DNA of 64,000 nucleotides, taken from contig CAYLMJ010000008.1 in NCBI GenBank assembly GCA_964384995.1, forward strand, positions 1,158 to 65,157. Reading direction: 5' to 3'. The notes under the pieces are model-generated. The model had not been told where the DNA came from. It made no database searches and saw only the letters and a list, made by a program, of their open reading frames with translations. A program made the position numbers and the translations under genes. The DNA comes from an uncultured archaeon (lineage in GTDB: Archaea > Thermoplasmatota > Poseidoniia > MGIII > CAYLMJ01). Position 1 is the first letter of the stretch. Each line of letters begins with the position of its first letter. Below are positions 30,720 to 61,346 of this stretch, piece after piece.

Positions 30720-31070
30720 AATCGAGTGCCGGAAAGCCACCGTTGACACCCTGGTCACCAACAACGGGTCCCGCCCCCTTCCTCAGCCCCGTGACCCCGC
30801 AAGCGTCAGCAGTCCATAGTAAGGCTGCTCCCTTCCGGGCCTGACCCGATCCCTACGGCAAAGGCGGTATACTTGCCCTCCGGCAGGCAGGGACCTCCAC
30901 CTAAAACCAAGCGGGACAGGGCGTCGACGGTCAGAAGCGGATCGTTGAAGGCGCTGGTTGCGCCGCCGGTGGTGTTCGGCCCCTGCTGTAGACGATAGGG
31001 CAAGTCACAGGGCACGCCTAGCTCCCCGGCCTATTCCGGCCCCGCAGCATGACCGCCAGGGGTATTTGGC
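30720..31070 (-). ncRNA. Signal recognition particle (7S) RNA, archaeal type (ends approximate)
   Basis: Minus strand reads GGGUCAGGCCCGGAAGGGAGCAGCC (helix-8 consensus; GGAA loop is the complement of 30833-30836). 45 nt upstream is UGCC-GGAG-GGCA (helix-6 GNAR loop; complement of 30878-30881). The 5' CCCUGGCGGUCA can pair with the 3' UGACCAGGG. TATA-like GATAAAGG lies about 27 nt upstream. Confidence 0.75.
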
Positions 31071-46009: not shown

Positions 46010-46122
46010 GTGTATCACGCAGGCCAGCGGCCCGGGAGGCTTTAAAGGGAGGTGGGCGCAGTTGTTTCCATCAGGGTCTTGCCTGGGACCTGGACCGCGT
46101 CCCACCCCAAAGCTTATTACGG

Positions 46123-46142
46123 ATTTCCCACTTGTGGGAAAT
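46123..46142. promoter_or_regulatory. Perfect palindrome ATTTCCCAC-TT-GTGGGAAAT in the hypA / RadB-like divergent intergenic region
   Basis: 9-bp arms read directly. Confidence 0.45.
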
Positions 46143-46286
46143 TCCGTGAAACCCGACAGTGAGACAACACCAGCCAGTATAGCCCGACAGCCGCCCCGCC
46201 GCAGTGGCAATGCGGGCCCCACCCTCGGCCCTGGGGCTGAGACGGCCTCCGACAACGATCCCGGAGAGGCTCCTTCGGAGACCGTC

Positions 46287-47114
46287 ATGAAGCGAGGGCG
46301 GTTGATGCCAGTGGCCCTGCCGGCGGCGGCCCTCTACCAGTGGCTGGCCCAGGGCGTCATGGAGCTGGACTGTCACGGAGTGATGGTGGACGGCGCCAGC
46401 ACCGCCAACCCCTACGCCCTGGTGGCGGCGGCCAAGGCCCTGGACCTTCCGGTGGACGAGGTGACCCGGCGGGTCCATGTGGTTCGGGGCTTCACCGCCC
46501 ACCAGCTGGAGCGGCTCTGCACCCATGACCTGCCCGAGCTGGCCCTGGAACTGGGAGCCCAGGGGCGGCGACTGGGCCTGGTCTGGCTCTCGGGGCTGAG
46601 CCTCTTCGAGGGCGATGACCAGCTCCAGCCCTTTGAGGGCGAGGCTCTGCGCGGCCGCTCCCTGAAGGCCATGGCCCGGCTGGTGAATCGGAACTGGGCC
46701 TTCGGCATCCTGACGGCCGCCGCCGGCCGCGGCTACGGCCACACCGGTCCGGGAGGGCCCGGGACCAGGTATCGGATAGAGTTCACACAGGAGGAGTGCA
46801 GAGTGGGACGTAGCTTACCCTCGTATCGCAATCAGCTTGAACACACCCTGGGCCGCTGGCAGGCCTACCGCCGGGCCCTCTCGCCCCGCGAGCGACCCTT
46901 CTTCGACCGGGTGACGGCCATGGCCCGGGCCCATGCCGCCCAGGGCGCTTACCTGGGCTCCGTGGACCCCATCGAGCCGGTGCTGCTGGCGGTCCTGGTG
47001 GAGCAGGAGAAGCGGCTGGAGGCCCTGGAGGGCCGACGGACCTTGGAGGCCCATTCGGCCCCGCGCACCGACGAGGAAACCCCGACCAGGGTGACTCCGG
47101 GCGACCGGGGATGA
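46287..47114 (+). CDS. RadA/RadB (RecA-superfamily)-like protein lacking Walker A and B, with helical C-terminal extension
   Basis: Pattern match to RadB. VMVDGASTANPYALVAAAKALDLPVDEVTRRVHVVRGFTAHQ resembles V.VDTEG.F.PERL...A...GL...E.L..I.V.RA....Q. GLVWLSGLSLF sits at the Walker B position. No GxxxxGK[ST] is present. Start at 46287 or 46305. Confidence 0.55.
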   Translation: MKRGRLMPVALPAAALYQWLAQGVMELDCHGVMVDGASTANPYALVAAAKALDLPVDEVTRRVHVVRGFTAHQLERLCTHDLPELALELGAQGRRLGLVWLSGLSLFEGDDQLQPFEGEALRGRSLKAMARLVNRNWAFGILTAAAGRGYGHTGPGGPGTRYRIEFTQEECRVGRSLPSYRNQLEHTLGRWQAYRRALSPRERPFFDRVTAMARAHAAQGAYLGSVDPIEPVLLAVLVEQEKRLEALEGRRTLEAHSAPRTDEETPTRVTPGDRG

Positions 47115-47180
47115 GGGGCGGGGGGCGAGGCCATCGAGGGCTGGCTGCTGGACGTCCACGCTCTGCCCCGCCGGGAGAAG

Positions 47181-49415
47181 ATGGCCCTGTGGCTCTGGCG
47201 CGGTCCCGGCGATGTTGTGCGACTTCTGGAGGACCATGACAACACCTTCTACGTCCAGGCCCTGGAGGGAGATCACCGGGAGCTGGAGCGGCTCTGCACC
47301 GAGGCCGGGGCGCCTTGCGAGCGGGTGGGTGTCAAGCTGGAGCTGGGCCGTGAGAGGGAGACCGAGGTCCTGAAGGTCCACCTGGGCCTGCGGGACGAGC
47401 GCAGCTTCGTGCGGGCCCTGAACCAGCGGGGAGGGTTCGGTCGCTACCGTTTCTTCGGTCTGGACCCCGATCTGGAACAGCGCTTCCTCCAGTCCCTGGG
47501 ACTCTATCCCCTGGCCCGGGTCAGTTGCTACCGCCACCGCTACGAGACCCTGGGCAGCCGACGGGGAATGGTGCGGCCCCCGCCCCTGCAGGTGGCCGAG
47601 CTGACCGTGGAGCCACGCATGATGACCAGCGCGCCCCACCTGCTGGACCCCCTGGGCCGGCTGGAGCTGGTCCGCCTGCCCTCTCCCGGCCTTGCCGGCG
47701 ACGGGACCAGCAGTTCGGCCCCTCGGACCGGGAGCAGGGCCGACCGCTGGGAATGGCTGGCCCCTGAAGGGGAACATGGGGGGCGCGGCCCCACCACACC
47801 CGCCGAGAGCGAGGCCCTGGAGCAACTGCAGGAGGTCCTGGACGAATGGGAGGTGGACGTGGTGGTGACATGCGGTGGTGACCAGTTCGACCTGGGCTAC
47901 CTCTGGGCCCGGGCCGACCTGGCCGGCCTGAGGTCCTTTCGCCTGGGCCGTCAGTGGCAGCCTCCCCGGCCCCGGCGCGGCGCCAGCTCCTACACCACCT
48001 ACGGCGAGGTGCGCTACCAGGCCCCGGCCTGGCACCTTCACGGCCGGCTTCACATCGACGTGCGCAACTCCTTCTTCTTCCAGGAGGGAGGCGTCTCGGG
48101 GCTCATCCACCTGGCCCGGCTCTCGGGAGTGCCCCTTCAGACCCTGGCCCGCTCCATGCCCGGCACCGCCATCTCCACCATCCAGATCCACGAGGCGGCG
48201 CGGCGGGGCTATCCCGTGCTCTGGAAGAAGAACCATCCCGAGCAGCCCAAGACCATGGCCGACCTGGCCTGCGCCGACCGCGGCGGCTACATCTGCGACC
48301 CGCAGGTGGGGGTCCATGGCAACGTGGCCGAGGTGGATTTCATCTCCCTCTACCCCTCCATCATGGTCCAGTACAACATCTCCCCCGAGACCCTGGACTG
48401 CCCCTGCTGTCCCGATTCGAGGCTGGCCATCCCCGGACTGCCCTATCGCTATTGCGAGCGCCAGGAGGGCATCGTCCCGGCCTCGCTGCGCCCCCTGCTG
48501 GCCACCCGCCGGGTGTGCAAGGCCCTGAGCAAGTCTCCCGACGACCACTATAAAAAGGTGGCCGATGTCCTGAAGTGGTTGTTGGTGTGCAGTTTCGGCT
48601 ACCAGGGCTACCGCAACGCCCGCTATGGCCGCATCGAGTGCCACGAGGCCATCCAGGCCGCGGCCCGGGAGACCATGGTGATCTCCATCGAGCTGGCCGA
48701 GGAGGCCGGCTACCGGGTGCTCCACGGCATCGTGGACTCCCTCTGGCTCCAGGGTCCGAAGAGGGACCTGCCGGCCCTGGTGGGCCGCATCAGCAAGGCC
48801 ACGGAACTGCCCCTGGCCCTGGAGGCCCTCTACCACTGGATCGCCTTCCTGCCCAACCGCTCCACCGGCCAGGGCTCCCTGACCCACTACTACGGCCTGA
48901 AGGTGACGGGCCAGGTGAAGTACCGGGGCATCGAGCTGCGCCAGCACGACACCCCCGCCTACCATCAGCGGGCCCAGAAGGCCATGCTGGCGGCTCTGGC
49001 CCGGGCCGACACCGTCGATGGCTTCCACCGCCAGATACCCGAGGCGGTGGCCGTGTTGCGCGACCATGCCGGCCCCCTGCGCCGCGGGGAGGTGGAACCG
49101 GGGGAACTGCTGATGCGCCGCCGCCTGACCCGCTCCCTGGAGGCCTACCACAACTTCAGCGACAACAGCGCGGCCATGGAGCAGCTGCTGGAGGCGGGCG
49201 TGGAGGCCCGACCGGGCCAGAGGGTGCGCTACCTGGTGGCCAACACCCGCGGCCGCACCCACCTGGAACGGGTCCGCATCGAACAGCTCATGCGGGGTGA
49301 CGAGACCTACGATAGGGCTTATTATTACAAGACCCTCCTGCGCTGTGGCGAGTCGCTGTTGTTGCCCTTCGGCTGGGACGTCGAGCGGCTGGACGCGGCG
49401 GTCCGCAGTCAGTAA
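47181..49415 (+). CDS. polB: Family-B DNA polymerase, PolB2-like with degenerate Exo I, Exo III and motif C (annotated from the first ATG; homology begins upstream at about 47127)
   Basis: Motif A DFISLYPSIMVQYNISPETL. Motif B KWLLVCSFGYQGYRNARYG. Motif C position reads VLHGIVDSLWL where Y.DTD is expected. Exo I position reads LTVEP where DIE is expected. Exo II GGDQFDLGYL is retained. Confidence 0.8.
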   Translation: MALWLWRGPGDVVRLLEDHDNTFYVQALEGDHRELERLCTEAGAPCERVGVKLELGRERETEVLKVHLGLRDERSFVRALNQRGGFGRYRFFGLDPDLEQRFLQSLGLYPLARVSCYRHRYETLGSRRGMVRPPPLQVAELTVEPRMMTSAPHLLDPLGRLELVRLPSPGLAGDGTSSSAPRTGSRADRWEWLAPEGEHGGRGPTTPAESEALEQLQEVLDEWEVDVVVTCGGDQFDLGYLWARADLAGLRSFRLGRQWQPPRPRRGASSYTTYGEVRYQAPAWHLHGRLHIDVRNSFFFQEGGVSGLIHLARLSGVPLQTLARSMPGTAISTIQIHEAARRGYPVLWKKNHPEQPKTMADLACADRGGYICDPQVGVHGNVAEVDFISLYPSIMVQYNISPETLDCPCCPDSRLAIPGLPYRYCERQEGIVPASLRPLLATRRVCKALSKSPDDHYKKVADVLKWLLVCSFGYQGYRNARYGRIECHEAIQAAARETMVISIELAEEAGYRVLHGIVDSLWLQGPKRDLPALVGRISKATELPLALEALYHWIAFLPNRSTGQGSLTHYYGLKVTGQVKYRGIELRQHDTPAYHQRAQKAMLAALARADTVDGFHRQIPEAVAVLRDHAGPLRRGEVEPGELLMRRRLTRSLEAYHNFSDNSAAMEQLLEAGVEARPGQRVRYLVANTRGRTHLERVRIEQLMRGDETYDRAYYYKTLLRCGESLLLPFGWDVERLDAAVRSQ

Positions 49416-49430
49416 CTAACCGGCGTTGCC

Positions 49431-49820
49431 ATGTACGACAACGAGGTCCTGGGTACCGGATTCATCGATCGCATCTACCGCATCGTGGTGCCCCGCAAGG
49501 CCCGGGACCTGGTGAAGCTGGAGGCTGGCCGCAACAGCGCCGTCTGGTTCGTGGACGAGTTCGACCTCTGTGTGAAGTTCCTGGAAGGAGCGGAGGAGGT
49601 GGAGCTGGCCCGGGACCGGTACGAGGTTCTGGACACCTCCACCATGGATGGCAAGTTCCGTCTGGTCGTGCCCAAGAGGATCCGCAGCCAGGTGGGGCTC
49701 TCCACCGAGGACCAGGTGGTGTGGTACACCGACGGCTTCAACCTCTGTGTCAAGTTCCTGTCGGCCAGGGACATGCACCGCCTGCTGGTGGCCATGGACC
49801 GGGAGCGGGAGCGCCATTGA
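49431..49820 (+). CDS. Tandem SpoVT/AbrB-domain (MraZ-like) protein
   Basis: Internal duplication: IDRIYRIVVPRKARDLVKL..AVWFVDEFDLCVKFL versus MDGKFRLVVPKRIRSQVGL..VVWYTDGFNLCVKFL. Confidence 0.65.
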   Translation: MYDNEVLGTGFIDRIYRIVVPRKARDLVKLEAGRNSAVWFVDEFDLCVKFLEGAEEVELARDRYEVLDTSTMDGKFRLVVPKRIRSQVGLSTEDQVVWYTDGFNLCVKFLSARDMHRLLVAMDRERERH

Positions 49821-49894
49821 CGGCGAGTTGGACCCCATCTCCTGGAGTTGAAAAGAAAGGGTGATTAACCAGATGTTGTTGGGGGGCCGAACCC

Positions 49895-52048
49895 ATGTCC
49901 GAAGAGACCCGTGAGGTATTCTGGAACATCCCGGATATCGGCCGTCCCATCATCTACCTCTTGAGTTTGGTGGCGATGGCCCTCTTTGCCTGGGGGATGC
50001 ATCACCGGTTCGTACGGTACTGGATGCGGGGCAAGGGGGCGCCCGAGGGACTGAGAGCTCAGGTGGGCCTTCTGTTGAGCGAGCTCAGGCGGGAGCCCCG
50101 GCGGCGGTTGAGCCGGTTGCGCAGGTTCGCCCTCTGCCAGTCTTGGTCGGGCCGCAGGCTCCTGGGCCGCATCATGCACCTGATGATCTTCTGGGGCTTT
50201 GTGGCCCTGTTCATCGGCACCCTCATCATCACCATCCAGGAGGACCTCACCCTCCCGCTCTTCGACTACGAGTTCTGGAAGGGCACCTTCTACCTGGTCT
50301 ACGCCGTCATACTGGACCTGCTGGGTCTCTTCTTCATGCTGGGCCTGCTCATCGCCCTGTGGCGGCGCTACGTTGCCAGGGCCCCCGAGCTGGAGCGGGG
50401 CATCGACGATCTGGTGGCCATGGGCCTGCTCTTCGTCATCGGCCTGACCGGCTACCTGGTGGAGGGTCTGCGCATCGCCGCCCGGGACCCGGTGAACTCG
50501 GATGTGGGGGCCTGGGAGTTCGCCGGCCAGGGCTTTGCCGCCCTCTGCACGGCCCTGGGGATGTCCGAGGGGGCGGCCGAGCTGCCCCATGCCATCCTGT
50601 GGTGGTCCCACTTCCTCCTGGCCATGGCCTTCATCGTCTACCTGCCCCACAGCAAGCTGATGCACATCATCACCGGGCCGGCCAGCATCCTCTTTGCCGA
50701 TCTCAAGCCTCGGGGACAGCTCACCAAACCCAGCGACCTGATGGCCCTGATGGAGCAGGACGACTTCGAGGAGGAGGACCTGATGATCGGAGCCGGGAAG
50801 CTGGAGGACCTCACCTGGCAGGAGCATCTGAGCTTCGACGCCTGCACCATGTGCGGCCGCTGTCAGGCGGCCTGCCCCGCGTATGCCAGCGACAAGCCCC
50901 TGAACCCCAAACGGCTGGTCCTGGACCTGAGAGGACTGCAGGAGACCAGCTACGGCAGGCTCTGGCGTTCACCGCCCGCCCCCGAACCCGTGGACCTCCA
51001 TGGCGCAACCATCGCCGCCGACACCCTGTGGGCCTGCACCACCTGCATGGGCTGTGTCGAGGCCTGCCCGGTGCTCATCCCCCACGTGGACCTCATCGTC
51101 GCCATGCGGCGCCACCTGACCATGACCGGCGATATCGTCGGCGAGCTCCAGGGGGTCTACCGCAACCTGGAGAACAACGGCAATCCCTGGGGCCTCGGCT
51201 GGGCCGAGCGGGCCGACTGGACCGAGGAGCTGGAGACCCCGGTGAAGCTGGCCTCGGAGGGCGATTTCGACTACTTGCTCTGGGTGGGATGTGCCGGGTC
51301 GTTCGATGCCCGGGCCCGCAAGGTGACGGTGGCCCTGGTGAAACTGCTCCAGGCCGCCAGGGTGGACTTCGCCATCCTGGGCACCGAGGAGAAGTGCAAC
51401 GGCGAGTTCGCCCGCCGCATGGGCAACGAACTGCTGTTCCAGATGCTGGTCACCGAGAACGTGGCCAACCTCAACGGCCATGGCGTGAAGAGGATCATCA
51501 CCGCCTGCCCCCACTGCTTCAACACCCTGAGCCACGATTACCCCCAGTTCGGCGGACATTACGAGGTGGTCCACCATTCCCGGTTCCTTCAAGACCTCAT
51601 CGATGTGGGAAAGCTCAAGGTGGACCCGGAAGCCGCTCGAGTCACCGGAACCGACGGACCCCTAACCTTCCACGACCCCTGCTACCTGGGCCGCTACAAT
51701 GGGGAGTACGAGGCCCCCCGTCGGGTCCTGAAAAGGGCTGGGATCGATATGGTGGAGATGGAACGCTCACGGACCGATTCCTTTTGCTGTGGCGCGGGGG
51801 GCGGCCGCATGTGGCTGGAGGAGGAGGCCCACCAGCGGGTCAACACCCTGCGGGTCAGGGAGGCTCTGGCCACAGGAGCCGGCACCATCGGCGTGGGCTG
51901 TCCGTTCTGCCTCACCATGCTGGAGGATGGCGTGAAGGAACAGGAACAGGGACAGGAGCAAGAGCGGGAGCTGGGGCGGGAAGGGGCCCCGGAGGGTGCA
52001 GTTAAGGTTTTAGACCTGGCCGAGCTTCTGGCCTTCAATATCCAATGA
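49895..52048 (+). CDS. Membrane-anchored Fe-S oxidoreductase (NarI/DsrM-like TM domain fused to 2x[4Fe-4S] and CCG domains; COG0247/DsrK/HdrD-like)
   Basis: About 5 N-terminal TM helices with conserved His (WWSHFLLAMAFIVYLPHSKLMH). Motifs: CTMCGRCQAACP, CTTCMGCVEACP, DPCYLGRYN, and CCGAGGG. Confidence 0.8.
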   Translation: MSEETREVFWNIPDIGRPIIYLLSLVAMALFAWGMHHRFVRYWMRGKGAPEGLRAQVGLLLSELRREPRRRLSRLRRFALCQSWSGRRLLGRIMHLMIFWGFVALFIGTLIITIQEDLTLPLFDYEFWKGTFYLVYAVILDLLGLFFMLGLLIALWRRYVARAPELERGIDDLVAMGLLFVIGLTGYLVEGLRIAARDPVNSDVGAWEFAGQGFAALCTALGMSEGAAELPHAILWWSHFLLAMAFIVYLPHSKLMHIITGPASILFADLKPRGQLTKPSDLMALMEQDDFEEEDLMIGAGKLEDLTWQEHLSFDACTMCGRCQAACPAYASDKPLNPKRLVLDLRGLQETSYGRLWRSPPAPEPVDLHGATIAADTLWACTTCMGCVEACPVLIPHVDLIVAMRRHLTMTGDIVGELQGVYRNLENNGNPWGLGWAERADWTEELETPVKLASEGDFDYLLWVGCAGSFDARARKVTVALVKLLQAARVDFAILGTEEKCNGEFARRMGNELLFQMLVTENVANLNGHGVKRIITACPHCFNTLSHDYPQFGGHYEVVHHSRFLQDLIDVGKLKVDPEAARVTGTDGPLTFHDPCYLGRYNGEYEAPRRVLKRAGIDMVEMERSRTDSFCCGAGGGRMWLEEEAHQRVNTLRVREALATGAGTIGVGCPFCLTMLEDGVKEQEQGQEQERELGREGAPEGAVKVLDLAELLAFNIQ

Positions 52049-52076
52049 TCCCTCATTGAAACCCCGAGGAGATTGC

Positions 52077-52832
52077 ATGCAGATCGTAGTTTGTGTCAAA
52101 CAGGTACCCGATTCGGAGTCCAAGATAACCATCAAGGAGGACCAGGTCGACGACAGCGGTTTCTCCTTCATCCTCAATCCCTATGACGAGTACGCCATCG
52201 AGGAGGCGGTACGGCTGAAGGAGCAGCATGGCGGCCAGGTGACCCTGGTCTCCCTGGGCTCGGCCGACCCCGGCATCGTCATCAAGAACGGCCTGGCCCT
52301 GGGCGCCGACGAGGCCCTGATCCTCAAGGACAGCGCCTACGACCGCTTCAACAGCGACACCGCCGCTCGCCAGCTGGCCGAGGCCATCAAGCCCCTGAAC
52401 CCCGACCTTGTCCTTTGCGGTCAGTCGGGCATCGATTTCAACCTGGGGCTCACCGGTCCGGCCCTGGCCGAGCACCTGGACCTGCCCCACGTGAGCTTCA
52501 TCCAGAAGCTGGAGGTGGAGGGTGGCAAGGCCGAGGCCCACCGCCAGATCGAGGGCGGCCACGAGGTGGTCGAGACCTCCCTGCCCGCTCTCGTCACCTG
52601 CCAGAAGGGTCTCAACGAACCCCGCTTCCCCTCCCTCATGGACATCATGAAGGCCAAGAAGAAGCCGGTCAACGAGCCCGAGGCGGCGGCCGGGGGTGAG
52701 CCCACGGCGATCATCGGCAAGGCCCGGATGCCCGAGGCCCGCACCGGCGGCTACCTCATTGAGGGCGAGACGGCCGCCGAGAAGGTGGTCAAACTGGTCG
52801 GCCATCTCAAGACCGATGCGAAGGTGATCTAG
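52077..52832 (+). CDS. etfB: Electron transfer flavoprotein beta subunit
   Basis: Start at MQIVVCVKQVPD with GAGGAG upstream. Motif: NPYDEYAIEEAVRLKE. Confidence 0.85.
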   Translation: MQIVVCVKQVPDSESKITIKEDQVDDSGFSFILNPYDEYAIEEAVRLKEQHGGQVTLVSLGSADPGIVIKNGLALGADEALILKDSAYDRFNSDTAARQLAEAIKPLNPDLVLCGQSGIDFNLGLTGPALAEHLDLPHVSFIQKLEVEGGKAEAHRQIEGGHEVVETSLPALVTCQKGLNEPRFPSLMDIMKAKKKPVNEPEAAAGGEPTAIIGKARMPEARTGGYLIEGETAAEKVVKLVGHLKTDAKVI

Positions 52833-53792
52833 ATGAGCCACCACGATCTGGTCGTGGCCGAGCAGAAGGAGGGCGTCCTGCGCCCGGTGACCGCAGAGAT
52901 CATCGGCCAGCTGGCGACCCAGGGCTCCGTCGAGGCGGTGATCGTAGGTGACGGAGCGTCCATCGAGGCGGTGGCACCTCAGCTGGCCGCCTTGCCGGTG
53001 GAGCGGGTCCACACCATCGACAACGCGGCATTCTCCCATTATCAGATGGAAGGTTACATGGCCGCCCTGAACGGCCTGGTGCAGGCCAACCAGCCCGAGG
53101 CCGTCTGGATGGGCGCCACGGCCCGGGGCCGTGATCTGGCCCCCCGCCTGGCCACCCGCCTGGGAGGGGCCTACATCCCCGACATCATCGGTTTCGAGGA
53201 GGGCCACTACCTGCGCTCGGTGTACGGTGGCAAGGCCCAGATCCTGGTGAACCGGAACGGGACCGGAGGCGCTCCGGTCCTGACCCTGCGACCCAACATC
53301 TTCCCGGCCGCGGAAGCTTCGGGCGGTGACGCGCCCATCGAGCCCTTTGCCTTCGAGATGCCCGACCTGCGGGCCCAGGTGAAGGAGGTGCTGCTCTCGG
53401 CCGAGGGCGGTGTCGACCTCACCGAGGCCAGGGTCATAGTTTCCGGTGGACGGGGCATCAAGGGACCCGAGAACTACAAGATCATCGAGGAGCTGGCCAG
53501 CCTGCTGGGCGGTTCCGCCGGCGCCTCCCGGGCCGTGGTGGATGCCGGCTGGGTACCCCACGCCAATCAGGTGGGTCAGACCGGCAAGGTGGTCAGTCCC
53601 GACCTCTACATCGCACTGGGTATATCGGGGGCCATCCAGCATCTGGCGGGCATGAACTCATCCAAGTGCATCGTGGCGGTCAACAAGGACCCCGAGGCTC
53701 CCATCTTCAAGATCGCCGATTACGGCATCGTGGGCGACCTGTTCGAGGTGGCCCCCATCCTGCAGGAAGAGCTGGCCAAAGTGGTGAACTAG
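52833..53792 (+). CDS. etfA: Electron transfer flavoprotein alpha subunit
   Basis: Motifs: [54 protein letters not shown], and [13 protein letters not shown]. Confidence 0.85.
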
Positions 53793-53837
53793 GGCGGGTA
53801 TGAACTAGGGCGGGTAAGCCCCCAATCCCTAGTTCAC
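53784..53837. terminator. Direct repeat GAACTAGGGCGGGTA x2 plus inverted CCCTAGTTCAC (hairpin spanning the etfA stop codon)
   Basis: Direct copies at 53786-53800 and 53802-53816. The complement arm is at 53827-53837. Terminator role is inferred only. Confidence 0.35.
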
Positions 53838-54237
53838 GCTCGTCCCTGTTGGCCAGGTCACCCCTCTTCGCTGAACGGCCCGGTCAGTGAGTAGCCCGGC
53901 CCAGTACCATCCCAGGGCATTGACAGTTGAGCCCAAGGCTCCAGGATTTTCCAAGCTCATTGATGGGTTTTTCAATTGCCCGACCCGAGATCCTGGCTGA
54001 TGGTGTGATAGAAACGAGTGAGATCCCGATCCTTCCACGATCATTGCCCAAAACATCGCCAGAACATCCGGCGAGGGCACTGATGAAATTAGCATCCCAA
54101 TAATATCATCAAATAAAAAGCATTTACTGTAAATAAATCGTGAGCTCTGCACTCCCTAGTGTACAATAATATGCGGGAATCGTAAATACATTAGTGACAA
54201 GGAGTTCTTATTAACTTTAAGAATTGCTCGAACCGAA

Positions 54238-54267
54238 CAACGATGGAGCTTAGACTCTCTATCGTTG
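54238..54267. promoter_or_regulatory. 11-bp imperfect inverted repeat CAACGATGGAG-N8-CTCTATCGTTG upstream of the etf/hdr/mvh operon
   Basis: One mismatch. Lies 28 nt before the ATG at 54295, inside a low-GC spacer. Confidence 0.4.
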
Positions 54268-54294
54268 CATTGCAGCAGCCGGGGGTTTCCTATA

Positions 54295-55536
54295 ATGCAA
54301 GACGAGCCGACTACCCAATCTTTACTTCCGGAGATTACCATAGACCCCGCCTCCAAGGAGGCCACCCGAGATTATCTACGCCGAGTGATCGCTCTGCCGG
54401 AAGGCCAGAAGATCCAGAACTGCATCCAGTGTGGGACCTGCACCGGCGGGTGTCCCCACGGCCATGTGATGGATTTCGCCCCCCGGAAGATGATCGCCGC
54501 CCTGCGAGCGGGATGGATCGATGAGATCCTGACCAGCGACACCATCTGGCTGTGCGTGGCCTGTTACACCTGCGCCCACCGTTGCCATGCCGGGATCGAA
54601 CTGGTGGACCACATGATCACCTCCATGCGCGAGGAGTTCCTGATCAAGGGCGCCGGTGTCCCCACCGAGTTGCAATCCGCTTTCGAGCGTTCAGGCCGCT
54701 ACGGCAACCCATTCGGCGAGTCTCCGCGCAAGCGGGGCAAATGGACCAAGGGCACCGACCTCGAGGTCAGGGAGCTCAAGGCCGGCGATTCGGCCGATGT
54801 GCTCTGGTTCGTGGAGTGCTTCCCAGCCTTCCACAAGCGCAACCAGGAGGCCTCCCGCGACTTCGCCCGGATCCTCAATGCCCTCAAGGTCGATTACGGC
54901 ACCCTGGGCAAGGACGAATGGTGCACCGGCGACGGCCGACGCCTGGGCGGTGAAAAGGGACTCTTCGAGGTGCTGTACGAGCACAACGCCGCCGAGCTGG
55001 CCAAGCGGGAGTTCAACGAGATCCTGGTCACCGACCCCCACGCCTACAACGCCCTGGTCCGTGAATACCCGACTCTGGGCAGCACCTACAAGGTCACCCA
55101 CTACTCCCAGTTCCTGATGGACCGCATCGAGGAGCTGAAACCCCTGATGACCAAGTCCCTTGACCTCAAGGTCACCTACCATGATCCCTGTTACCTGGGC
55201 CGGCGCAACGACATCTACGAGCCTCCCCGCGAGCTCCTGGCCAGCATCCCCGGCGTCAAGCTGGTGGAGATGGACCGCAATCGCGAGGACGCCCTCTGCT
55301 GTGGTGGCGGCGGCGGCGGAGTCTGGCTGGACAGCTTCATCTGGGAGCACACCGAGGTCCCTCTGCCCGAACAGCGGGTGAAGGAGGCGGCCCGAACCGG
55401 TGCCGATGTGATGGCTGTGGCCTGCCCCCTGGAGGTGTCCCGTTTCGAGGACGCTGTGAAGACCGCGGGGCTGGAAGGTCAGCTGGCGGTCAAGGAGATA
55501 ACCGAGTTGATAGCAGAGGCTATGGAACCCTCATGA
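54295..55536 (+). CDS. Soluble Fe-S oxidoreductase, HdrD/GlpC-like (2x[4Fe-4S] plus CCG domains)
   Basis: Start at MQDEPT. Motifs: CIQCGTCTGGCP, CVACYTCAHRC, HDPCYLGRRN, and CCGGGGG. Confidence 0.8.
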   Translation: MQDEPTTQSLLPEITIDPASKEATRDYLRRVIALPEGQKIQNCIQCGTCTGGCPHGHVMDFAPRKMIAALRAGWIDEILTSDTIWLCVACYTCAHRCHAGIELVDHMITSMREEFLIKGAGVPTELQSAFERSGRYGNPFGESPRKRGKWTKGTDLEVRELKAGDSADVLWFVECFPAFHKRNQEASRDFARILNALKVDYGTLGKDEWCTGDGRRLGGEKGLFEVLYEHNAAELAKREFNEILVTDPHAYNALVREYPTLGSTYKVTHYSQFLMDRIEELKPLMTKSLDLKVTYHDPCYLGRRNDIYEPPRELLASIPGVKLVEMDRNREDALCCGGGGGGVWLDSFIWEHTEVPLPEQRVKEAARTGADVMAVACPLEVSRFEDAVKTAGLEGQLAVKEITELIAEAMEPS

Positions 55537-55546
55537 GGTGAGTCAA

Positions 55547-56314
55547 ATGGATCTGATAGTTCTGATGAAACAGGTGCCCGATGTGGTGGAGGAGCTGGTA
55601 ATCGATGATGATGGCAAGGCTCTCGACACCGACGAGGTAATGTACATCCCCAACGAGCTGGACGAGCACGCCCTGGAGCAGGCCCTGCTGCTAAAGGAGC
55701 AGCATGGCGGCAAGATCACTGTGATATCCGTGGGCGGCGACGAGGCCAAGGATGCCCTGGCTTCCGCCGTGGCCAAGGGTGCCGATGAGGCGGTCTACGT
55801 CGAGGCCGAGATGGAGGGCCAGTGCGACAACCACAAGCTGGCCTCCCACCTCGATGGGATCATCAAGGGCCGCACTTTCGACATGCTCCTCACCGGTGTC
55901 CAGGCCGTGGACGATATCGACGGCAGTGTGGGCAGCCTCCTGGCCACCCATATGGACCTGCCCTACGTGGGAGGGCTGGCCAAGGTCAGCGCCGACCCCG
56001 GCCGGCGCGTCACAACCGTCGAGAAGGAGTTTCCCGGCGGCCTGCTGGGCGAGATGGAAGTGACCTTCCCCGCCATCCTGGGCGTCCAGTCGGCCGAGCA
56101 GCCTCCCCGCTACGTCCCGGTCAGCAAGGTCATGCAGACCAAGAAGACCCTGGAGGTCGAGGAGCTTGGTGACGAGCTTCCCGAGGTCTCGGGCCTGGCC
56201 ATCCAGGAGATGGTCCTGCCAGAACCCGCCGAGCGCGCCGAGATGCTTGAGGGCGACGGGGAAGATGTGGCTGCGAGGATCGTCGAGCTCTTGCAGGAGC
56301 GTGGTTTGTTATGA
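55547..56314 (+). CDS. etfB: Electron transfer flavoprotein beta-subunit-like (divergent)
   Basis: Start at MDLIVLMKQVPD with GAGGTGA upstream. Motif: NELDEHALEQALLLKE. Confidence 0.75.
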   Translation: MDLIVLMKQVPDVVEELVIDDDGKALDTDEVMYIPNELDEHALEQALLLKEQHGGKITVISVGGDEAKDALASAVAKGADEAVYVEAEMEGQCDNHKLASHLDGIIKGRTFDMLLTGVQAVDDIDGSVGSLLATHMDLPYVGGLAKVSADPGRRVTTVEKEFPGGLLGEMEVTFPAILGVQSAEQPPRYVPVSKVMQTKKTLEVEELGDELPEVSGLAIQEMVLPEPAERAEMLEGDGEDVAARIVELLQERGLL

Positions 56315-57288
56315 GCCAGTCCGATATTGTTGTTATCGCCGAGCACCGGCAGGGCCAGATAGCCGAGATAACCTACGAGCTGGTGGCCTGCGGTCGCAAG
56401 CTGGCCTCCGACCTTTCGGGGACCTTGACCTGCCTGCTGCTCACCAGTGCGCCTGACACCTTCAAGGGTTGCAACCTCAACGTTGATCGGCTTGAGGTGA
56501 TCGAGGATGCCAGCCTGGGCGAGTTCAACCCGGAGGCCTATCACAAGGTCCTCGCCCCCATGCTGAAGGGGCTGGCCCCAGGCCTGGTCATCCTGGGCAA
56601 CACCGGCTCAGGCATGGACCTGGCCTCTTCCCTTTCCCTGGCCTGCGACGCCACCCTCATCGCCAACTGCACCGAGATCACCGCGGCGGGAGGCGCTCTC
56701 TCCGCCACCAGCCAGCTCTACGGCGGCAAGGTCATGGCCACCAGCCAGTTCTCCTCCCCCATGGGCATCGCCCTGCTGATGCCGGGCAACTACGCCCAGG
56801 AGGAGGGCCAGGCGGCTCCCGGAGCGGTCAATGTCCAGGCACCCCCTGAGCCCCTGGGAACCCTGCGAACAACCTTCAAGCGTTTCATCGAACCCGAGGT
56901 CACCGATGTGGACATCACCAAGGTCCCGGTGCTCATCGCCGCCGGTCGAGGCGTCGATGGTGAGGACAACCTGGAGGACATCGAAGAACTGGCCGAGGCA
57001 CTTGGCGGGGCCACCTGCGCCTCCCGGCCTGTGGTGGACCAGGGCTGGATGGACCGCGCTCGCCAGGTGGGTCGTTCCGGCATGATCGTCAAGCCCAGGT
57101 TCTACCTGGCCCTTGGCCTCTCCGGAGCCCCCGAGCACGTGGAGGGCATGAAGGACTCCGAGCTCATCATCGCCATCAACACCGACGAGACCGCCCCCAT
57201 CTTCGACGTGGCCCACTTCGGCTCAACCGAGGACCTGTTTGACGTGGTCGAGCCCCTGGCCGAGAAGATCGAGGAGCTGCGAGGTTAA
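56311..57288 (+). CDS. etfA: Electron transfer flavoprotein alpha-subunit-like (divergent FAD motif)
   Basis: ATGA overlap with the upstream gene. Motifs: ASRPVVDQGW, QVGRSGMIVKPRFYLALGLSGAPEHVEGM, and IIAINTDETAPIF. Confidence 0.75.
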   Translation: MSQSDIVVIAEHRQGQIAEITYELVACGRKLASDLSGTLTCLLLTSAPDTFKGCNLNVDRLEVIEDASLGEFNPEAYHKVLAPMLKGLAPGLVILGNTGSGMDLASSLSLACDATLIANCTEITAAGGALSATSQLYGGKVMATSQFSSPMGIALLMPGNYAQEEGQAAPGAVNVQAPPEPLGTLRTTFKRFIEPEVTDVDITKVPVLIAAGRGVDGEDNLEDIEELAEALGGATCASRPVVDQGWMDRARQVGRSGMIVKPRFYLALGLSGAPEHVEGMKDSELIIAINTDETAPIFDVAHFGSTEDLFDVVEPLAEKIEELRG

Positions 57289-57291
57289 TTG

Positions 57292-59370
57292 ATGTCCGCT
57301 CAGGAGGGCCCGGACATCGGTCGTGAGGCCTTCGACCATTTCCCCCACTGGATGCACCTGAGCTTCTACGCCATCTCGGCCCTGGCGGTGGTCATTTTCC
57401 TCTTCGGGATATGGCTTCACGCCCGGCGCTACTGGGCGGCCCGGCGCAACATCGGCCGGTTCGATCTTCGCAGCATGCCCCTGAAGCTCTGGGTGGCGTT
57501 CCAGAAGTTGACCCTGCAGCGCTCACGGCTCTGGCGCAACGACCGCTTTGCCGGCATCGCCCACGACCTGGTGCTTTGGGGCTTTGTGGTCCTCGTCATC
57601 GGCACCGTCATAATGACCCTGGAGGAGGATGTGGCCGAGCTGTTCTTCGGGGTCCACTTCCTCAAGGGCACCTTGTACCTTGTCTACTCGTTCGTGCTGG
57701 ACGTCTTCGGCATAGTCTTCATCGTCGGCATGATGATGATGTTCTACCGCCGCTCGGGCGACCGCACCCCCAGGCTCGATTACAGCGACGAGGACAGCAC
57801 CGATGGGTCCGAGGGCAGGGGTGCCTCCCTGGGCACCTTCCTGATGGACGACAAGCTCTTCCTGTTCCTGCTGGTTATCGCGGGTTTCACCGGCTACTTC
57901 GCCGAGGGCATCCGCATCTACCGTGATGATACTCCCTTCGCCGACGAGTGGTCCCCCATCGGTGTGGGTCTGGCGGCCCTCGTGGGTGTGGCGAACCTGA
58001 GCGCAGATACGGCTACCGACATCCACCAGGTGTTGTGGTGGATCCACGCCATCGGCGCCCTGGCCTTCGTGGCCTACATCCCCCACTCCAAGGCCATGCA
58101 CATGCTGTCCGGATTCGGCAGCCTCGTGTTCCACGATGAGCAGGCCGGCAAGCGCCTGGAAGCCCCGATCAACGAGGAGCCCTCCGGCTTCACCCAGCTG
58201 TCAGACTTCTCCTGGGTCCAGCTGATGCAGATGGACGCCTGCGTCCGATGTGGGCGCTGTCACGAGAGCTGTCCCGCCCAGGCCAGCGGCCTGCCCCTGT
58301 CGCCCCGGGGTCTCGTCCTCAACTTCAAGGCCCACAGTCAGGGCCTCAACGGCAATGGCGGCGAAACCCAGCCCCTGGTTGGGGACTCCATCGGGCAGAC
58401 CACCCTCTGGTCCTGCACCACCTGCATGGCCTGCATGGACGCCTGCCCCTTGCACATCGAGCATCTGCCCCTCATCGTCGAGGGCCGTCGCTACCTGGTG
58501 AACCAGGGGATGCTCGACGGTGGCGTGCAGACCGCCCTGGAGGCCCTGGGACGCTACGGCAACTCGTTCAAGCGTCCGGCCAAGGGTCGTGCCAAGTGGT
58601 CCAAGAAGGCCGAACCGGCCGTCAAGGACGCTCGCAAGGAGCCGGTGGAATACCTGTGGTACCTGGGTGACTACGCCACCTACGACAAGCGGTGCCAGGA
58701 TGTGACCAAGGTCACCGCCGGTGTCATGGTCAAACTGGGTATCGACTTTGGCACCCTGAAGGAGGGCGAGAAGAACTCCGGCAACGATGCTCGACGCATC
58801 GGCGAGGAAGGGCTCTTCGACATGCTCCAGGAGCAGAACCTGGAAGCCCTCCAGGCGGCCGAGTACACCCATCTGGTGACCACCGATCCCCATACCTATC
58901 ATACCTTCAAACATGAGTATCCGACCCTCAACAAGGGCCGGATCCTTCATTCCAGTGAGCTACTGGCCGAACTCCTCCAAAACGGTCAACTAAAGTTCAC
59001 TAACCAACTCAAAGGCAAAGTGACCTTCCATGACCCCTGTTATCTGGGGCGCTACAACTCGGTGTACGACGCACCCAGAGATGTGCTGAAGGCCACCGGC
59101 CTCGATCTGATCGAGATGGAACGCTGTCGCTCCAACAGCTACTGTTGCGGGGCCGGCGGTGGCCGCATATGGATGGAGGAGTTGGAGGGCGAGACCGAGC
59201 GTCCCGCCGAAAGCAGGGTCAAGGAGGCCGCCAGTCTTGGAGACGTGGACACGTTGGTCGTGGCCTGTCCCAAGGACTATGTGATGTTCCAGGACGCGGT
59301 GAAGACCGCTGGCCTGGAGGATTCCCTCCAGATCAAAGACCTGTTCGAACTAGTGGAGGAGGCGTTATGA
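57292..59370 (+). CDS. Membrane-anchored Fe-S oxidoreductase (DsrM/NarI-like TM + DsrK/HdrD-like), paralog of 49895-52048
   Basis: TM helices with WWIHAIGALAFVAYIPHSKAMH. Motifs: CVRCGRCHESCP, CTTCMACMDACP, HDPCYLGRYN, and CCGAGGG. Confidence 0.8.
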   Translation: MSAQEGPDIGREAFDHFPHWMHLSFYAISALAVVIFLFGIWLHARRYWAARRNIGRFDLRSMPLKLWVAFQKLTLQRSRLWRNDRFAGIAHDLVLWGFVVLVIGTVIMTLEEDVAELFFGVHFLKGTLYLVYSFVLDVFGIVFIVGMMMMFYRRSGDRTPRLDYSDEDSTDGSEGRGASLGTFLMDDKLFLFLLVIAGFTGYFAEGIRIYRDDTPFADEWSPIGVGLAALVGVANLSADTATDIHQVLWWIHAIGALAFVAYIPHSKAMHMLSGFGSLVFHDEQAGKRLEAPINEEPSGFTQLSDFSWVQLMQMDACVRCGRCHESCPAQASGLPLSPRGLVLNFKAHSQGLNGNGGETQPLVGDSIGQTTLWSCTTCMACMDACPLHIEHLPLIVEGRRYLVNQGMLDGGVQTALEALGRYGNSFKRPAKGRAKWSKKAEPAVKDARKEPVEYLWYLGDYATYDKRCQDVTKVTAGVMVKLGIDFGTLKEGEKNSGNDARRIGEEGLFDMLQEQNLEALQAAEYTHLVTTDPHTYHTFKHEYPTLNKGRILHSSELLAELLQNGQLKFTNQLKGKVTFHDPCYLGRYNSVYDAPRDVLKATGLDLIEMERCRSNSYCCGAGGGRIWMEELEGETERPAESRVKEAASLGDVDTLVVACPKDYVMFQDAVKTAGLEDSLQIKDLFELVEEAL

Positions 59371-61346
59371 CAGACGAACTGAAAATAGGTGTCTATGTCT
59401 GTGACTGTGGCACGAACATCGCTGGCGTCGTTGACGTTCCAGCGGTAGTAGAGCATGCAAAAGGGCTCGCGGGAGTGGCTGTGGCCAGGGAGTACAAGTA
59501 CATGTGCTCCAGCCCGGGACAGGACCTGATCAAGGATGACATCCGGGATCTGGGGATCAACCGCGTGGTTGTCGCCTCCTGTTCACCCCACCTCCATGAG
59601 ACCACTTTCCGAAATGCCGTGGAAGAGGCTGGAGGCAATGCCTTCATCATGCACATGGTGAACATCCGCGAGCAGGTCTCGTGGGTCACAACCGACCATG
59701 CCGAGGCCACCGAGAAGGCCAAGTCCCTGGTCAGTGCAGGAGTGGCCCGGGTGGGTCACCATGAGGCCCTGGACCGTCGGCAGGTCTCGGTGCGGGACGA
59801 GATCCTCGTCCTCGGCGGGGGTATCGCCGGCATCCAGGCCGCGCTGACAGCGGCCGAGGCCGGTCGTCAGGTCTACCTGGTGGAGAAGGAACCCACCATC
59901 GGCGGCCACATGGCCAAGTTCGACAAGACCTTCCCCACCCTGGACTGTTCGGCCTGTATCCTGACCCCCAAGATGACCACCGTGGGCAGCCATCCCAACA
60001 TCAACATGCTGACCTACTCCGAGGTCACCGAGGTCGAGGGTTACACTGGCAACTACAATGTCACCATCAAGCGCAAGCCCCGCTACATCAAGGAGGACGC
60101 CTGTATCGGCTGCTTCCAGTGTGTAGAGGACTGCGTCTTCAAGGAAGCCAAGGTCCCCAGCGAGTTCGACGAGGGCCTGGGCAAGCGCAAGCCGGTCTAC
60201 ATATCCTTCCCCCAGGCTGTGCCCCAGATCGTCACCATCGATCCCGCCACATGTCTGCAGCTCAAGGTCGGCAAGTGCAAGCAGACCTGCGTGGACGCCT
60301 GTGGCGAGCGCAACGCCATTGACTTCGACATGCAGGAGGAGCTCATGGAGGTGGAGGTGGGAGCCATCATCGTCACCACCGGCTTCAAGACCTTCGACGC
60401 GGCCCAGACCACCAATTACGGCTACGGCAAGTATCCCGAGGTCTACACCGGCCTGGAGATCGAGCGCGTCCTGTCCTCAAGCGGACCCACCGGCGGCGAG
60501 CTGGTCATGAAGAACGGGGAGGCCCCCGAGACCGTGGCCATCATCCACTGTGTCGGCTCCCGGGACGAGAATTACAACATCTACTGCTCCAAGGTCTGCT
60601 GCATGTACTCGCTGAAGTACGCACACCTGGTCAAGGAGCGCACCGGTGCCGAGGTCCACGAGTTCTACATCGACATGCGGACCCCCGGCAAGGGCTACGA
60701 GGAGTTCTACCTCCGTCTGATGGAGGAGGGCACCAACATGGTCCGGGGCAAGATCGCCCATATCACCGACATCGCCCAGACCGACGAGGAGGAGGGCAAG
60801 CTGGTGGTCGTGGGTGAGGACACCCTGCTGGGCGTGGTTCGCCGAACCCCGGTGGACATGGTCATCCTGAGCACCGGCCTGGAGGCCTCACCCGAGAAGG
60901 AGGATGTCCGTCGGATGCTCAACATGTCCTGCTCCTCTGAGGGCTTCTTCATGGAGAAGCACCCCAAGCTGGCTCCGGTCAACACCGTCAACGACGGCAT
61001 CTACATCGCCGGCGCCTGCCAGGGTCCCAAGGACATCCCCGAGACCGTGGCCCAGGCCGAGGCCGCGGCCGCAGAGGCCATCGCCCTGACCTCCAAGGGT
61101 TTCATCACCCTAGAGCCCAACCTGGCCTCGGTGAACGAGGACCTTTGTTCCGGTTGCCACGTATGTATCTCGCTCTGTCCCTACACGGCCATCGAGTACG
61201 ACGAGGAGAAGAAGGTCTCGGTGATCAACGACGTGCTCTGCAAGGGTTGCGGCGTCTGCGTGGCGGCCTGTCCCAGTGGAGCCATCAGCCAGAAGCTGTT
61301 CGAGTATGACCAGATCATGGATGAACTGAAGGCGGTGCTAGCATGA
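59367..61346 (+). CDS. hdrA: Heterodisulfide reductase subunit A-like flavoprotein
   Basis: Start at MTDELKIGVYVCDCGTNIAG, an ATGA overlap with the upstream gene. Motifs: ILVLGGGIAGIQAAL, FPTLDCSACILTPKM, and multiple ferredoxin CxxCxxCxxxCP motifs. Confidence 0.9.
   Translation: MTDELKIGVYVCDCGTNIAGVVDVPAVVEHAKGLAGVAVAREYKYMCSSPGQDLIKDDIRDLGINRVVVASCSPHLHETTFRNAVEEAGGNAFIMHMVNIREQVSWVTTDHAEATEKAKSLVSAGVARVGHHEALDRRQVSVRDEILVLGGGIAGIQAALTAAEAGRQVYLVEKEPTIGGHMAKFDKTFPTLDCSACILTPKMTTVGSHPNINMLTYSEVTEVEGYTGNYNVTIKRKPRYIKEDACIGCFQCVEDCVFKEAKVPSEFDEGLGKRKPVYISFPQAVPQIVTIDPATCLQLKVGKCKQTCVDACGERNAIDFDMQEELMEVEVGAIIVTTGFKTFDAAQTTNYGYGKYPEVYTGLEIERVLSSSGPTGGELVMKNGEAPETVAIIHCVGSRDENYNIYCSKVCCMYSLKYAHLVKERTGAEVHEFYIDMRTPGKGYEEFYLRLMEEGTNMVRGKIAHITDIAQTDEEEGKLVVVGEDTLLGVVRRTPVDMVILSTGLEASPEKEDVRRMLNMSCSSEGFFMEKHPKLAPVNTVNDGIYIAGACQGPKDIPETVAQAEAAAAEAIALTSKGFITLEPNLASVNEDLCSGCHVCISLCPYTAIEYDEEKKVSVINDVLCKGCGVCVAACPSGAISQKLFEYDQIMDELKAVLA

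Follow-up and report, generated by a model that had tools for sequence, protein, structure and literature searches.

What would an archaeon gain from a row of genes whose products resemble recombination and replication proteins with altered catalytic motifs? The question is raised by positions 46287-49820 of a 64,000-nucleotide (nt) stretch of contig CAYLMJ010000008.1 from an uncultured archaeon; this whole stretch is called the window below. An earlier note, made from the sequence alone, had described here three adjacent plus-strand genes for a RadB-like protein of the RecA superfamily, a catalytically degenerate family B polymerase and an MraZ-like tandem-AbrB protein, and had offered them as a possible archaeal accessory module for damage tolerance or recombination. 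The open reading frame (ORF) listing of the window indeed contains three co-oriented, closely spaced plus-strand ORFs at 46287-47114, 47181-49415 and 49431-49820 (genes 1, 2 and 3). Our analysis indicates that the region is very probably the PolB2 mutasome operon of this archaeon, in the variant where an inactivated RadA (iRadA) is fused to PPB2, working by the mechanism proposed below. The module is thus no novelty: in 2013/2014 Makarova and Koonin described that PolB2 is associated with an inactivated RadA and with arCOG07300, and linked this to the damage response (PMC4104785), and Timinskas, Timinskas and Venclovas presented in 2025 a model of a heteropentameric PolB2-iRadA-PPB2(3) mutasome and noted iRadA-PPB2 fusions (PMC11791011). 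The operon comprises the following features.

46106-46119, plus strand: BRE/TATA-like element (BRE, B recognition element) CCCAAAGCTTATTA, a conserved block and predicted promoter element, centred about 30 nt before GTG 46146
46124-46141, no strand assigned: 18-bp perfect palindrome TTTCCCAC-TT-GTGGGAAA, placed between TATA box and start codon; candidate operator
46146-47114, plus strand: gene 1, predicted iRadA-PPB2 fusion, 322 amino acids from the most likely start GTG 46146 (profile matches, AlphaFold2 and Foldseek, motif reading)
46146-46286, plus strand: variable, low-complexity N-terminal tail of gene 1, about 47 residues
46287-46802, plus strand: RadA/Rad51-like, ATPase-dead core of gene 1 (profile match, fold model)
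46790-46796, plus strand: internal Shine-Dalgarno sequence GGAGGAG, read in the sequence, 6 nt before GTG 46803
46803-47114, plus strand: PPB2 module of gene 1 (arCOG07300 / DUF8156 / PF26485; phmmer, alignment, AlphaFold2)
47133-49415, plus strand: gene 2, PolB2-type family B DNA polymerase, 760 amino acids from the putative start ATC 47133 and 744 from the annotated ATG 47181
49431-49820, plus strand: gene 3, two predicted AbrB/SpoVT-type repeats and a C-terminal helix, 129 amino acids, last gene of the operon

Two modules in gene 1

Standard domain libraries gave no significant match to gene 1. A profile of its residues 1-172 and their homologues (residues are numbered from ATG 46287) matched the RadA/Rad51/DMC1 ATPase cores in the PDB with E = 6e-14, whereas RadB (2cvf) reached only E = 0.63 with the same profile. 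The AlphaFold2 model of gene 1, built from an alignment of 35 sequences, had a mean predicted local distance difference test (pLDDT) score of 88.9, and Foldseek matched it exclusively to RadA/Rad51 cores (E of about 3e-9, probability 1.0). Because of these profile and structure matches, the N-terminal module is assigned as RadA/Rad51-like and not RadB-like; the RecA-fold similarity that the earlier note had supposed was found in both searches, while its assignment to RadB did not hold. The nucleotide-binding motifs of this module have been lost. As had been noted before, a motif scan detected neither a Walker A motif (GxxxxGK[ST]) nor any GK[ST] in gene 1, and no hhhhD in the ATPase region. 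Walker A is likewise missing from the iRadA ORFs of other archaea (0 of 80). In place of a helix-hairpin-helix domain, the N-terminal region of gene 1 is a low-complexity tail.

The C-terminal 103 residues (173-275), about one third of the protein, form a second module that the earlier note had missed, PPB2, which as a protein of its own is helical and has about 90 amino acids. An exhaustive phmmer search of 1.8 billion representative proteins with gene 1 gave 393 matches, and among the best 150 of these most were 80-120 amino acids long and had their own residue 1 aligned to residue 173 of gene 1. The aligned PPB2 homologues begin with the consensus MGRT(V/L)PT(Y/F)R, followed by a helical body. 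In the window this N-terminal arm reads (V)GRSLPSYR, with R3 and R9 present in the alignment (form (V/M)GRSLPSYR), and residues 180-257 are helical in the AlphaFold2 model. PF26485 was found among the precomputed annotations of gene 1 homologues, and a 43% identical locus (L007) carries a separate 86-amino-acid DUF8156 gene between a Rad51-family gene and PolB2. By its sequence, gene 1 is an iRadA-PPB2 fusion of two modules.

Residue 173 is encoded by GTG 46803, exactly the start position of the free-standing PPB2 proteins. At the PPB2 start, a Shine-Dalgarno-like sequence followed by ATG or GTG was present in all seven fusions inspected; in the independent Thermoplasmata fusion L084, the internal start is preceded by GGAGGTGAT. 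Enrichment of Shine-Dalgarno sequences upstream of the PPB2 part of such fusions has been reported and taken to mean that one mRNA yields both the fusion and free PPB2 (Timinskas et al., PMC11791011). In the window, too, a free PPB2 of 103 amino acids can probably be made by internal initiation at GTG 46803.

The polymerase

Gene 2 matched the NCBIfam models NF004416 and NF004418 with E-values of about 1e-117, yet below the NCBI equivalog cut-offs, and its profile matched PolB structures in the PDB (E = 8e-45). The closest named homologues, at about 40% identity, are PolB2 proteins of Thermoplasmata and Methanomassiliicoccales that adjoin iRadA and PPB2. These NCBIfam matches and the motif pattern confirm the placement in the PolB2 group that had been suggested. 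The motifs were read from an alignment to Thermococcus PolB, with a reference that we take to be the KOD PolB sequence:

Motif A: reference DFRSLYPS, window DFISLYPS; kept
Motif B: reference Lys, Asn and Tyr; window with Lys kept, Asn replaced by Val and Tyr by Phe
Motif C: reference YSDTD, window HGIVD; first Asp replaced by Ile
Exo I: reference FDIET, window LTVEP; Asp lost (Thr in its place)
Exo II: reference NGDNFD, window GGDQFD; kept
Stretch carrying Exo III: 105 residues in the reference, 61 in the window

The alignment thus reproduced the motif readings of the earlier note, including the loss of two catalytic Asp residues, those of Exo I and the first of motif C. HGIVD is invariant among the nine PolB2 sequences aligned, so the changes characterise the family and are not a decay peculiar to this gene. 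Also invariant, in all aligned PolB2 sequences, are the Asp of motif A and the second Asp of motif C. A low-complexity insertion of about 45 residues (LPSPGLAGDG...GRGPTTPAESE, at about 47680-47815) lies in the exonuclease-remnant domain; in the alignment it is confined to 90%-identical relatives, and other PolB2 proteins lack it.

Dpo2 of Sulfolobus islandicus, which carries an equivalent IID motif, polymerises DNA robustly, has no proofreading and extends termini that are mismatched or paired to a lesion; robust nucleotide incorporation and mismatch extension in vitro have been reported for the S. islandicus and S. solfataricus enzymes alike (PMC8764526). Dpo2 is damage-inducible and is needed in vivo for damage-induced (targeted) mutagenesis (PMC7390963); its induction depends on Orc1-2 (PMC6061795). 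Since the Sulfolobus enzyme is active with an equivalent motif, calling gene 2 catalytically degenerate is unsafe, and this part of the earlier description is outdated.

Synteny and proposed mechanism

iRadA, PPB2 and PolB2 are adjacent and co-oriented in the window, in all clade loci and, according to a scan with hidden Markov models (HMMs), in our comparison set of 80 archaeal PolB2 loci in GTDB from outside the clade. The pairing of the RecA-like protein with the polymerase was therefore syntenic in every relative examined, and this synteny, together with the published link (PMC4104785), bears out the idea of a conserved module tied to DNA-damage tolerance. iRadA and PPB2 are in separate ORFs in 66 of the 80 loci and fused in one (L084). 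The fusion is found in the window, in all 12 loci of its clade (the 11 that carry gene 3 and L002, where the contig breaks off within PolB2) and in the distant relative L006. In four Thermoplasmatales loci (L036, L072, L082 and L085) a conserved 157-amino-acid ORF (..HIGFCRADLVA..VVAIELK..) lies directly 3' of PolB2; by eye it is PD-(D/E)xK nuclease-like and may be a further lineage-specific addition to the operon.

With the PolB2 mutasome, of which S. islandicus Dpo2 with its arCOG07300 and radA-like neighbours is the experimental example, the locus shares the order iRadA, PPB2, PolB2, an iRadA devoid of N-terminal domain and ATPase motifs, the N-terminal GR(T/S) arm of PPB2 with Arg at positions 3 and 9, and a polymerase in which Ile-x-Asp replaces DxD and the exonuclease domain has decayed. 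Fusions of iRadA and PPB2 that contain an internal Shine-Dalgarno sequence have been reported before as a variant of the system. The locus differs in that a fourth gene, for the tandem-AbrB protein, is coupled to PolB2 on the 3' side, in the 18-bp palindrome between TATA box and start codon, and in the ATC that stands in place of a canonical PolB2 start. It also differs in lacking an adjacent orc1/cdc6 gene and a terminal PCNA-binding motif, and in its variable low-complexity iRadA tail (about 47 residues) and the insertion of about 45 residues in the exonuclease remnant of PolB2.

We propose that a single mRNA, beginning at or beside GTG 46146, would yield the iRadA-PPB2 fusion and, through internal initiation at GTG 46803, which has a Shine-Dalgarno sequence of its own, free PPB2. 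One fused and two free copies would then make up a PPB2 trimer, in which the conserved GRS..YR arm of the fused copy would insert between iRadA and PolB2 near the primer terminus, with PolB2 binding iRadA through a motif like that used in RadA oligomerisation. Such a complex would serve damage tolerance by extending, without proofreading, primer ends that are mismatched or paired to a lesion.

The PolB2 mutasome has been likened to Pol V (UmuD'2C-RecA) and Pol zeta (PMC11791011). In that analogy, all are multisubunit, damage-induced translesion or extender polymerases without proofreading, and Pol V resembles the PolB2 model in that a RecA-family protein is bound by way of an oligomerisation-like motif and the arm of a small subunit lies near the active site. 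Pol V differs in its Y-family catalytic subunit, in using RecA as an active recombinase and not as an ATPase-dead paralogue, and in its non-homologous small subunits. The cassette of ImuA, ImuB and DnaE2, which the earlier note had preferred as an analogy, has the concept in common, namely a non-recombinase RecA-like protein encoded beside a specialised polymerase for damage mutagenesis. However, ImuB is of the Y-family and DnaE2 of the C-family, so that there is no homology at the polymerase level, and in that cassette the inactive (ImuB) and active (DnaE2) polymerases are separate proteins. Here the only polymerase is a single B-family enzyme which, by analogy with Sulfolobus, would be active. 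Pol V and Pol zeta are the closer comparison.

Promoter, palindrome and start codons

The block CCCCAAAG(C/T)TTATTAC is identical in the window and in three relatives (L001, L003 and L009); farther upstream their DNA is unrelated. By archaeal promoter geometry, CCCAAAGCTTATTA is a predicted promoter element. It is followed by the palindrome, which across the clade reads TTTCCCAC-(A/T)T-GTGGGAAA, with GTG 46146 next to it in the window. The exact sequence TTTCCCACNNGTGGGAAA stands at the equivalent position in 10 of the 10 clade loci whose upstream DNA is included, and the palindrome is retained in L003 and L009 despite their differing flanking genes. It is thus conserved across the closer part of the clade; the most divergent locus with gene 3 (L005) lies outside this sample, as its upstream DNA is missing. 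No second copy was found in the 64 kb of the window, even with three mismatches allowed. The Sulfolobus Orc1-2 element ANTTTC (PMC6061795) was considered as the content of the palindrome and rejected, being absent from its sequence when read by eye. L006 has neither the palindrome nor gene 3, and its AT-rich upstream region is different. In place of the palindrome, this relative carries an intergenic direct repeat, two copies of CATTTAGGGT (region 476-598). Directly upstream of its iRadA-PPB2 fusion, at 2-475 of this 48% identical locus, lies a gene for an SOS-response-associated peptidase (SRAP), consistent with the reported enrichment of SRAP genes near such operons (PMC11791011).

Gene 1 most likely starts at GTG 46146, 141 nt upstream of ATG 46287. 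This GTG is in frame with gene 1 and conserved in four lineages, the frame stays open despite in-frame indels, 7 of 10 variable columns fall on third codon positions, and neither downstream ATG of gene 1 is present in L009. The N-terminal tail that this start adds is rich in Pro, Gly, Ser, Thr and Asp, and three of the four lineages conserve its initial 15 residues, (K/R)PDSETTPASIARQ. With the GTG about 30 nt after the centre of the TATA-like element, the mRNA of gene 1 is probably leaderless or nearly so.

The start of PolB2 is less conventional. Directly upstream of the annotated ATG 47181, the 16 codons from ATC 47133 encode IEGWLLDVHALPRREK, whose IEGWLLDVH aligns with the N-terminus M-x-GWLLD of the homologues. 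The ATC aligns with the Met of these homologues and lies 18 nt after the stop codon TGA of gene 1. In all four lineages compared there is no ATG, GTG or TTG between the ATC and the in-frame stop 4-7 codons upstream of it, and in all four the ATC is preceded, at a distance of about 7 nt, by a Shine-Dalgarno-like G-run. The 16-codon stretch is free of indels, of which the adjacent spacer has some, and 5 of its 9 variable columns are third positions; the 48 nt from the ATC diverge by 6-12%, against 20-37% at the third codon positions of the PolB2 gene. In more distant relatives PolB2 starts with an ATG overlapping the stop of gene 1 (L005) or with TTG (L006). The best, though unproven, reading is that PolB2 starts at ATC 47133 or by reinitiation 18 nt after the stop of gene 1. 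Two other explanations of the junction were rejected. Read-through of the gene 1 stop, giving a triple fusion, is excluded since the arrangement is not conserved: the TGA is in the PolB2 frame in the window and L003, while the frames differ in L001 and L009. An overlapping ATGA start hidden by a sequencing indel in the G-run would require a different indel in different relatives, as judged from the junctions read by eye.

The putative tandem-AbrB gene

Gene 3 appears to be an internal duplication of an AbrB-type unit (residues of about 8-55 and 65-112). A half-unit HMM matched its stop-to-stop ORF at residues 10-57 and 70-116, each with E of about 1e-27. The AbrB domain model TIGR01439 scored 29.6 bits on repeat 2 (cut-off 28.3) and Pfam PF04014 scored 19.5 (cut-off 24.7). 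In the PDB, the only matches of the gene 3 profile were AbrB-family N-domains, on both repeats, with weak E-values of 0.17-0.5, and MraZ was not among them. As in the AbrB family, the repeats keep the basic residues of the DNA-binding hairpin (..DRIYRIVVPRKAR.. and ..DGKFRLVVPKRIR..). The MraZ models stayed far below threshold (19 bits against 98.35 for TIGR00242, 14.8 against 23 for PF02381), so the label MraZ-like can apply to nothing but the architecture, with its two AbrB-type repeats in a single chain, as the earlier note had seen; gene 3 falls outside the MraZ family. Gene 3 also differs from MraZ in not heading a division/cell-wall (dcw, mraZ-rsmH-ftsL) cluster, and from both families in its 129 amino acids with a C-terminal helix and in the fact that all members found adjoin PolB2 in one archaeal clade.

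Gene 3 lies directly 3' of PolB2 in all 11 clade loci with DNA downstream of PolB2. The two genes overlap by 4 nt in L005 and are 2 nt apart in L009; in the other loci 15-18 nt separate them. In the window gene 3 has no Shine-Dalgarno sequence of its own. The adjacency is maintained down to 53% identity in PolB2 and 39% in gene 3 (L005), and both flanks of the operon vary: the hyp operon is absent from L003, and downstream L003 has an inserted M14 peptidase gene and L009 an inserted YhcG nuclease gene. Among the 80 other archaeal PolB2 loci the HMM scan found no gene 3, and the downstream genes there are heterogeneous. A word-indexed search of a 5.8-billion-protein database recovered gene 3 in only two 90%-identity clusters and missed the L005 copy. 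A metagenome scan with the gene 3 alignment gave no match, and one with the gene 1 alignment retrieved PPB2 genes from other lineages and nothing else. A role as the antitoxin of a toxin-antitoxin pair was considered and rejected, no adjacent toxin family (PIN/VapC, MazF) being listed among the neighbours, which are PolB2 and an Fe-S oxidoreductase, M14 peptidase or YhcG nuclease gene. The tandem-AbrB gene and the palindrome are limited to this small uncultured lineage, and we found no mention of AbrB together with PolB2 in the papers searched, PMC11791011 and its supplements included. The tandem-AbrB gene, the conserved promoter palindrome, the probable leaderless GTG and the probable ATC start appear to be undescribed features.

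From the co-occurrence of the two elements, we tentatively suggest that the gene 3 protein may bind the palindrome TTTCCCAC-N2-GTGGGAAA and repress the operon until DNA damage, a LexA-like autoregulation that is doubtful, though the most plausible role for this protein. It would then fill locally the role that LexA has in bacterial PolB2 operons or Orc1-2 in Sulfolobales. The weak ATC start, in turn, may hold down the amount of the mutagenic PolB2 or tie its production to that of the gene 1 protein.

Alternative explanations

Might the operon instead be a module of inactivated proteins, its polymerase catalytically dead and confined to a scaffolding or regulatory part in repair or replication? 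This was the accepted view in 2008-2014 (PMC4104785), and the Ile in place of the first metal-ligand Asp of motif C, the two substitutions in motif B and the decayed exonuclease motifs would all fit it. Yet Dpo2 incorporates nucleotides and extends mismatches with its equivalent IID (PMC8764526) and is required for damage-induced mutagenesis in vivo (PMC7390963), and the invariance of the motif A Asp and of the second motif C Asp suggests that the active site is under selection; we regard a dead enzyme as highly improbable. A start of PolB2 at ATG 47181 has more in its favour, being chosen by all gene callers and preceded by GGGAG at 3-4 nt, while translation very rarely begins at ATC. On this reading IEGWLLDVHALPRREK would not be translated, and its conservation would have another cause, such as an RNA structure or a ribosome-binding region. 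Against this, the 16 codons can be matched one by one to the N-terminal strand of every other PolB2 protein, with a near-invariant Trp that is missing only in P0006, which was called from the same downstream ATG. The third-position variation, the lack of indels, the low divergence and the G-run before the ATC described above also argue for translation of the stretch, and the ATG start seems to us a minority possibility.

For gene 3, the proposed autoregulation has to be compared with two other roles. The protein could be a fourth structural subunit or a DNA-binding accessory, for instance a DNA tether, with the palindrome bound by another regulator. Its translational coupling to PolB2, seen in the overlap in L005, the 2-nt gap in L009 and the missing Shine-Dalgarno sequence in the window, is an arrangement typical of co-made subunits, and another DNA tether would make sense given that the other subunits have no clamp-binding motif. 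However, swapped-hairpin domains of the AbrB type are mostly known from antitoxins and from transcription factors that read DNA sequence, and the 80 other PolB2 loci do without such a subunit, which makes this role unlikely. Gene 3 could also be an unrelated passenger, such as an orphan AbrB-type antitoxin or other regulator, adjacent only because the loci are closely related. Its confinement to one narrow clade and to two 90%-identity clusters, its absence from the 80 other loci, the fact that AbrB domains are very common small modules, and the silence of the papers searched on an association with PolB2 would suit a passenger. On the other hand, the adjacency holds at the low identities of L005 and outlasts the change of both flanks in L003 and L009, the coupling-tight spacing persists and there is no adjacent toxin gene; we therefore consider a passenger rather unlikely.

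Several points weigh against the mutasome interpretation as set out here, or against its regulatory extension. Complex formation and action in damage tolerance would follow from published models and from experiments in Sulfolobus, and PolB2 polymerase activity is known only from Sulfolobales, which are distant from the PolB2 of the window. A regex search of the three proteins found no terminal PCNA-binding motif, only an internal QGSLTHYY in PolB2. The conserved N-terminal strand of PolB2 lies within 47115-47183 without a canonical start codon, and a start at ATG 47181 is possible. The AbrB assignment of gene 3 consists of one domain match just above threshold and weak profile matches, and the AlphaFold2 model of gene 3, with a pLDDT of 47, is too low in confidence for use of its fold. 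Lastly, the gene 3-palindrome link is a co-occurrence within one clade with little independent sampling, to which L005 contributes no upstream DNA.

Host and genomic neighbourhood

The contig (63% G+C) is archaeal, as had been supposed, because the window contains an archaeal signal recognition particle (SRP) RNA:

30727-31041, minus strand: archaeal SRP RNA, Rfam RF01857, 168 bits, full length

A bacterial origin had come under consideration on account of the iRadA-PPB2 fusion in a bacterial-pattern gene order and an RNase R-like gene in the window; it was ruled out by the SRP RNA and the archaeal nearest relatives of PolB2. The latter gene, a 925-amino-acid ORF on the plus strand (5610-8387), matches the RNase R / RNase II family (TIGR02063, E = 1e-109, below cut-off), which is uncommon in archaea other than halophiles. 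No close relative was found among the GTDB species representatives, where the best PolB2 matches, from Thermoplasmata and Methanomassiliicoccales, reach about 40% identity. A scan for sigma-70 promoters and terminators is uninformative for an archaeal host.

Upstream, the operon is flanked by a divergent hypA-F operon, and downstream by genes for Fe-S oxidoreductases and electron-transfer flavoproteins. The latter form two successive plus-strand clusters (49874-61346), each of a CCG-domain Fe-S oxidoreductase, EtfB and EtfA, and are followed by another Fe-S oxidoreductase and then an HdrA2-like gene. The first Fe-S gene probably starts at ATG 49874, behind the Shine-Dalgarno sequence GGTGAT, and not at 49895.

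Implications

As the core finding re-identifies a published system, it leaves the knowledge of archaeal damage tolerance unchanged. It adds one lineage with an iRadA-PPB2 fusion from which free PPB2 may be made by internal initiation, and a fusion accompanied by free PPB2 fits the proposed complex with three PPB2, one protomer of which bears the arm. The AbrB-type protein, probably co-transcribed, and the operator-like palindrome provide a concrete hypothesis for the control of PolB2 operons outside Sulfolobales. The conserved ATC, if it is the start of PolB2, would be a rare documented case of a non-canonical archaeal start codon, and one that limits a mutagenic enzyme. If the gene 3 circuit is real, it would represent a self-contained, LexA-like autoregulation of a mutagenic polymerase in archaea, with the ATC start as a second layer of control.

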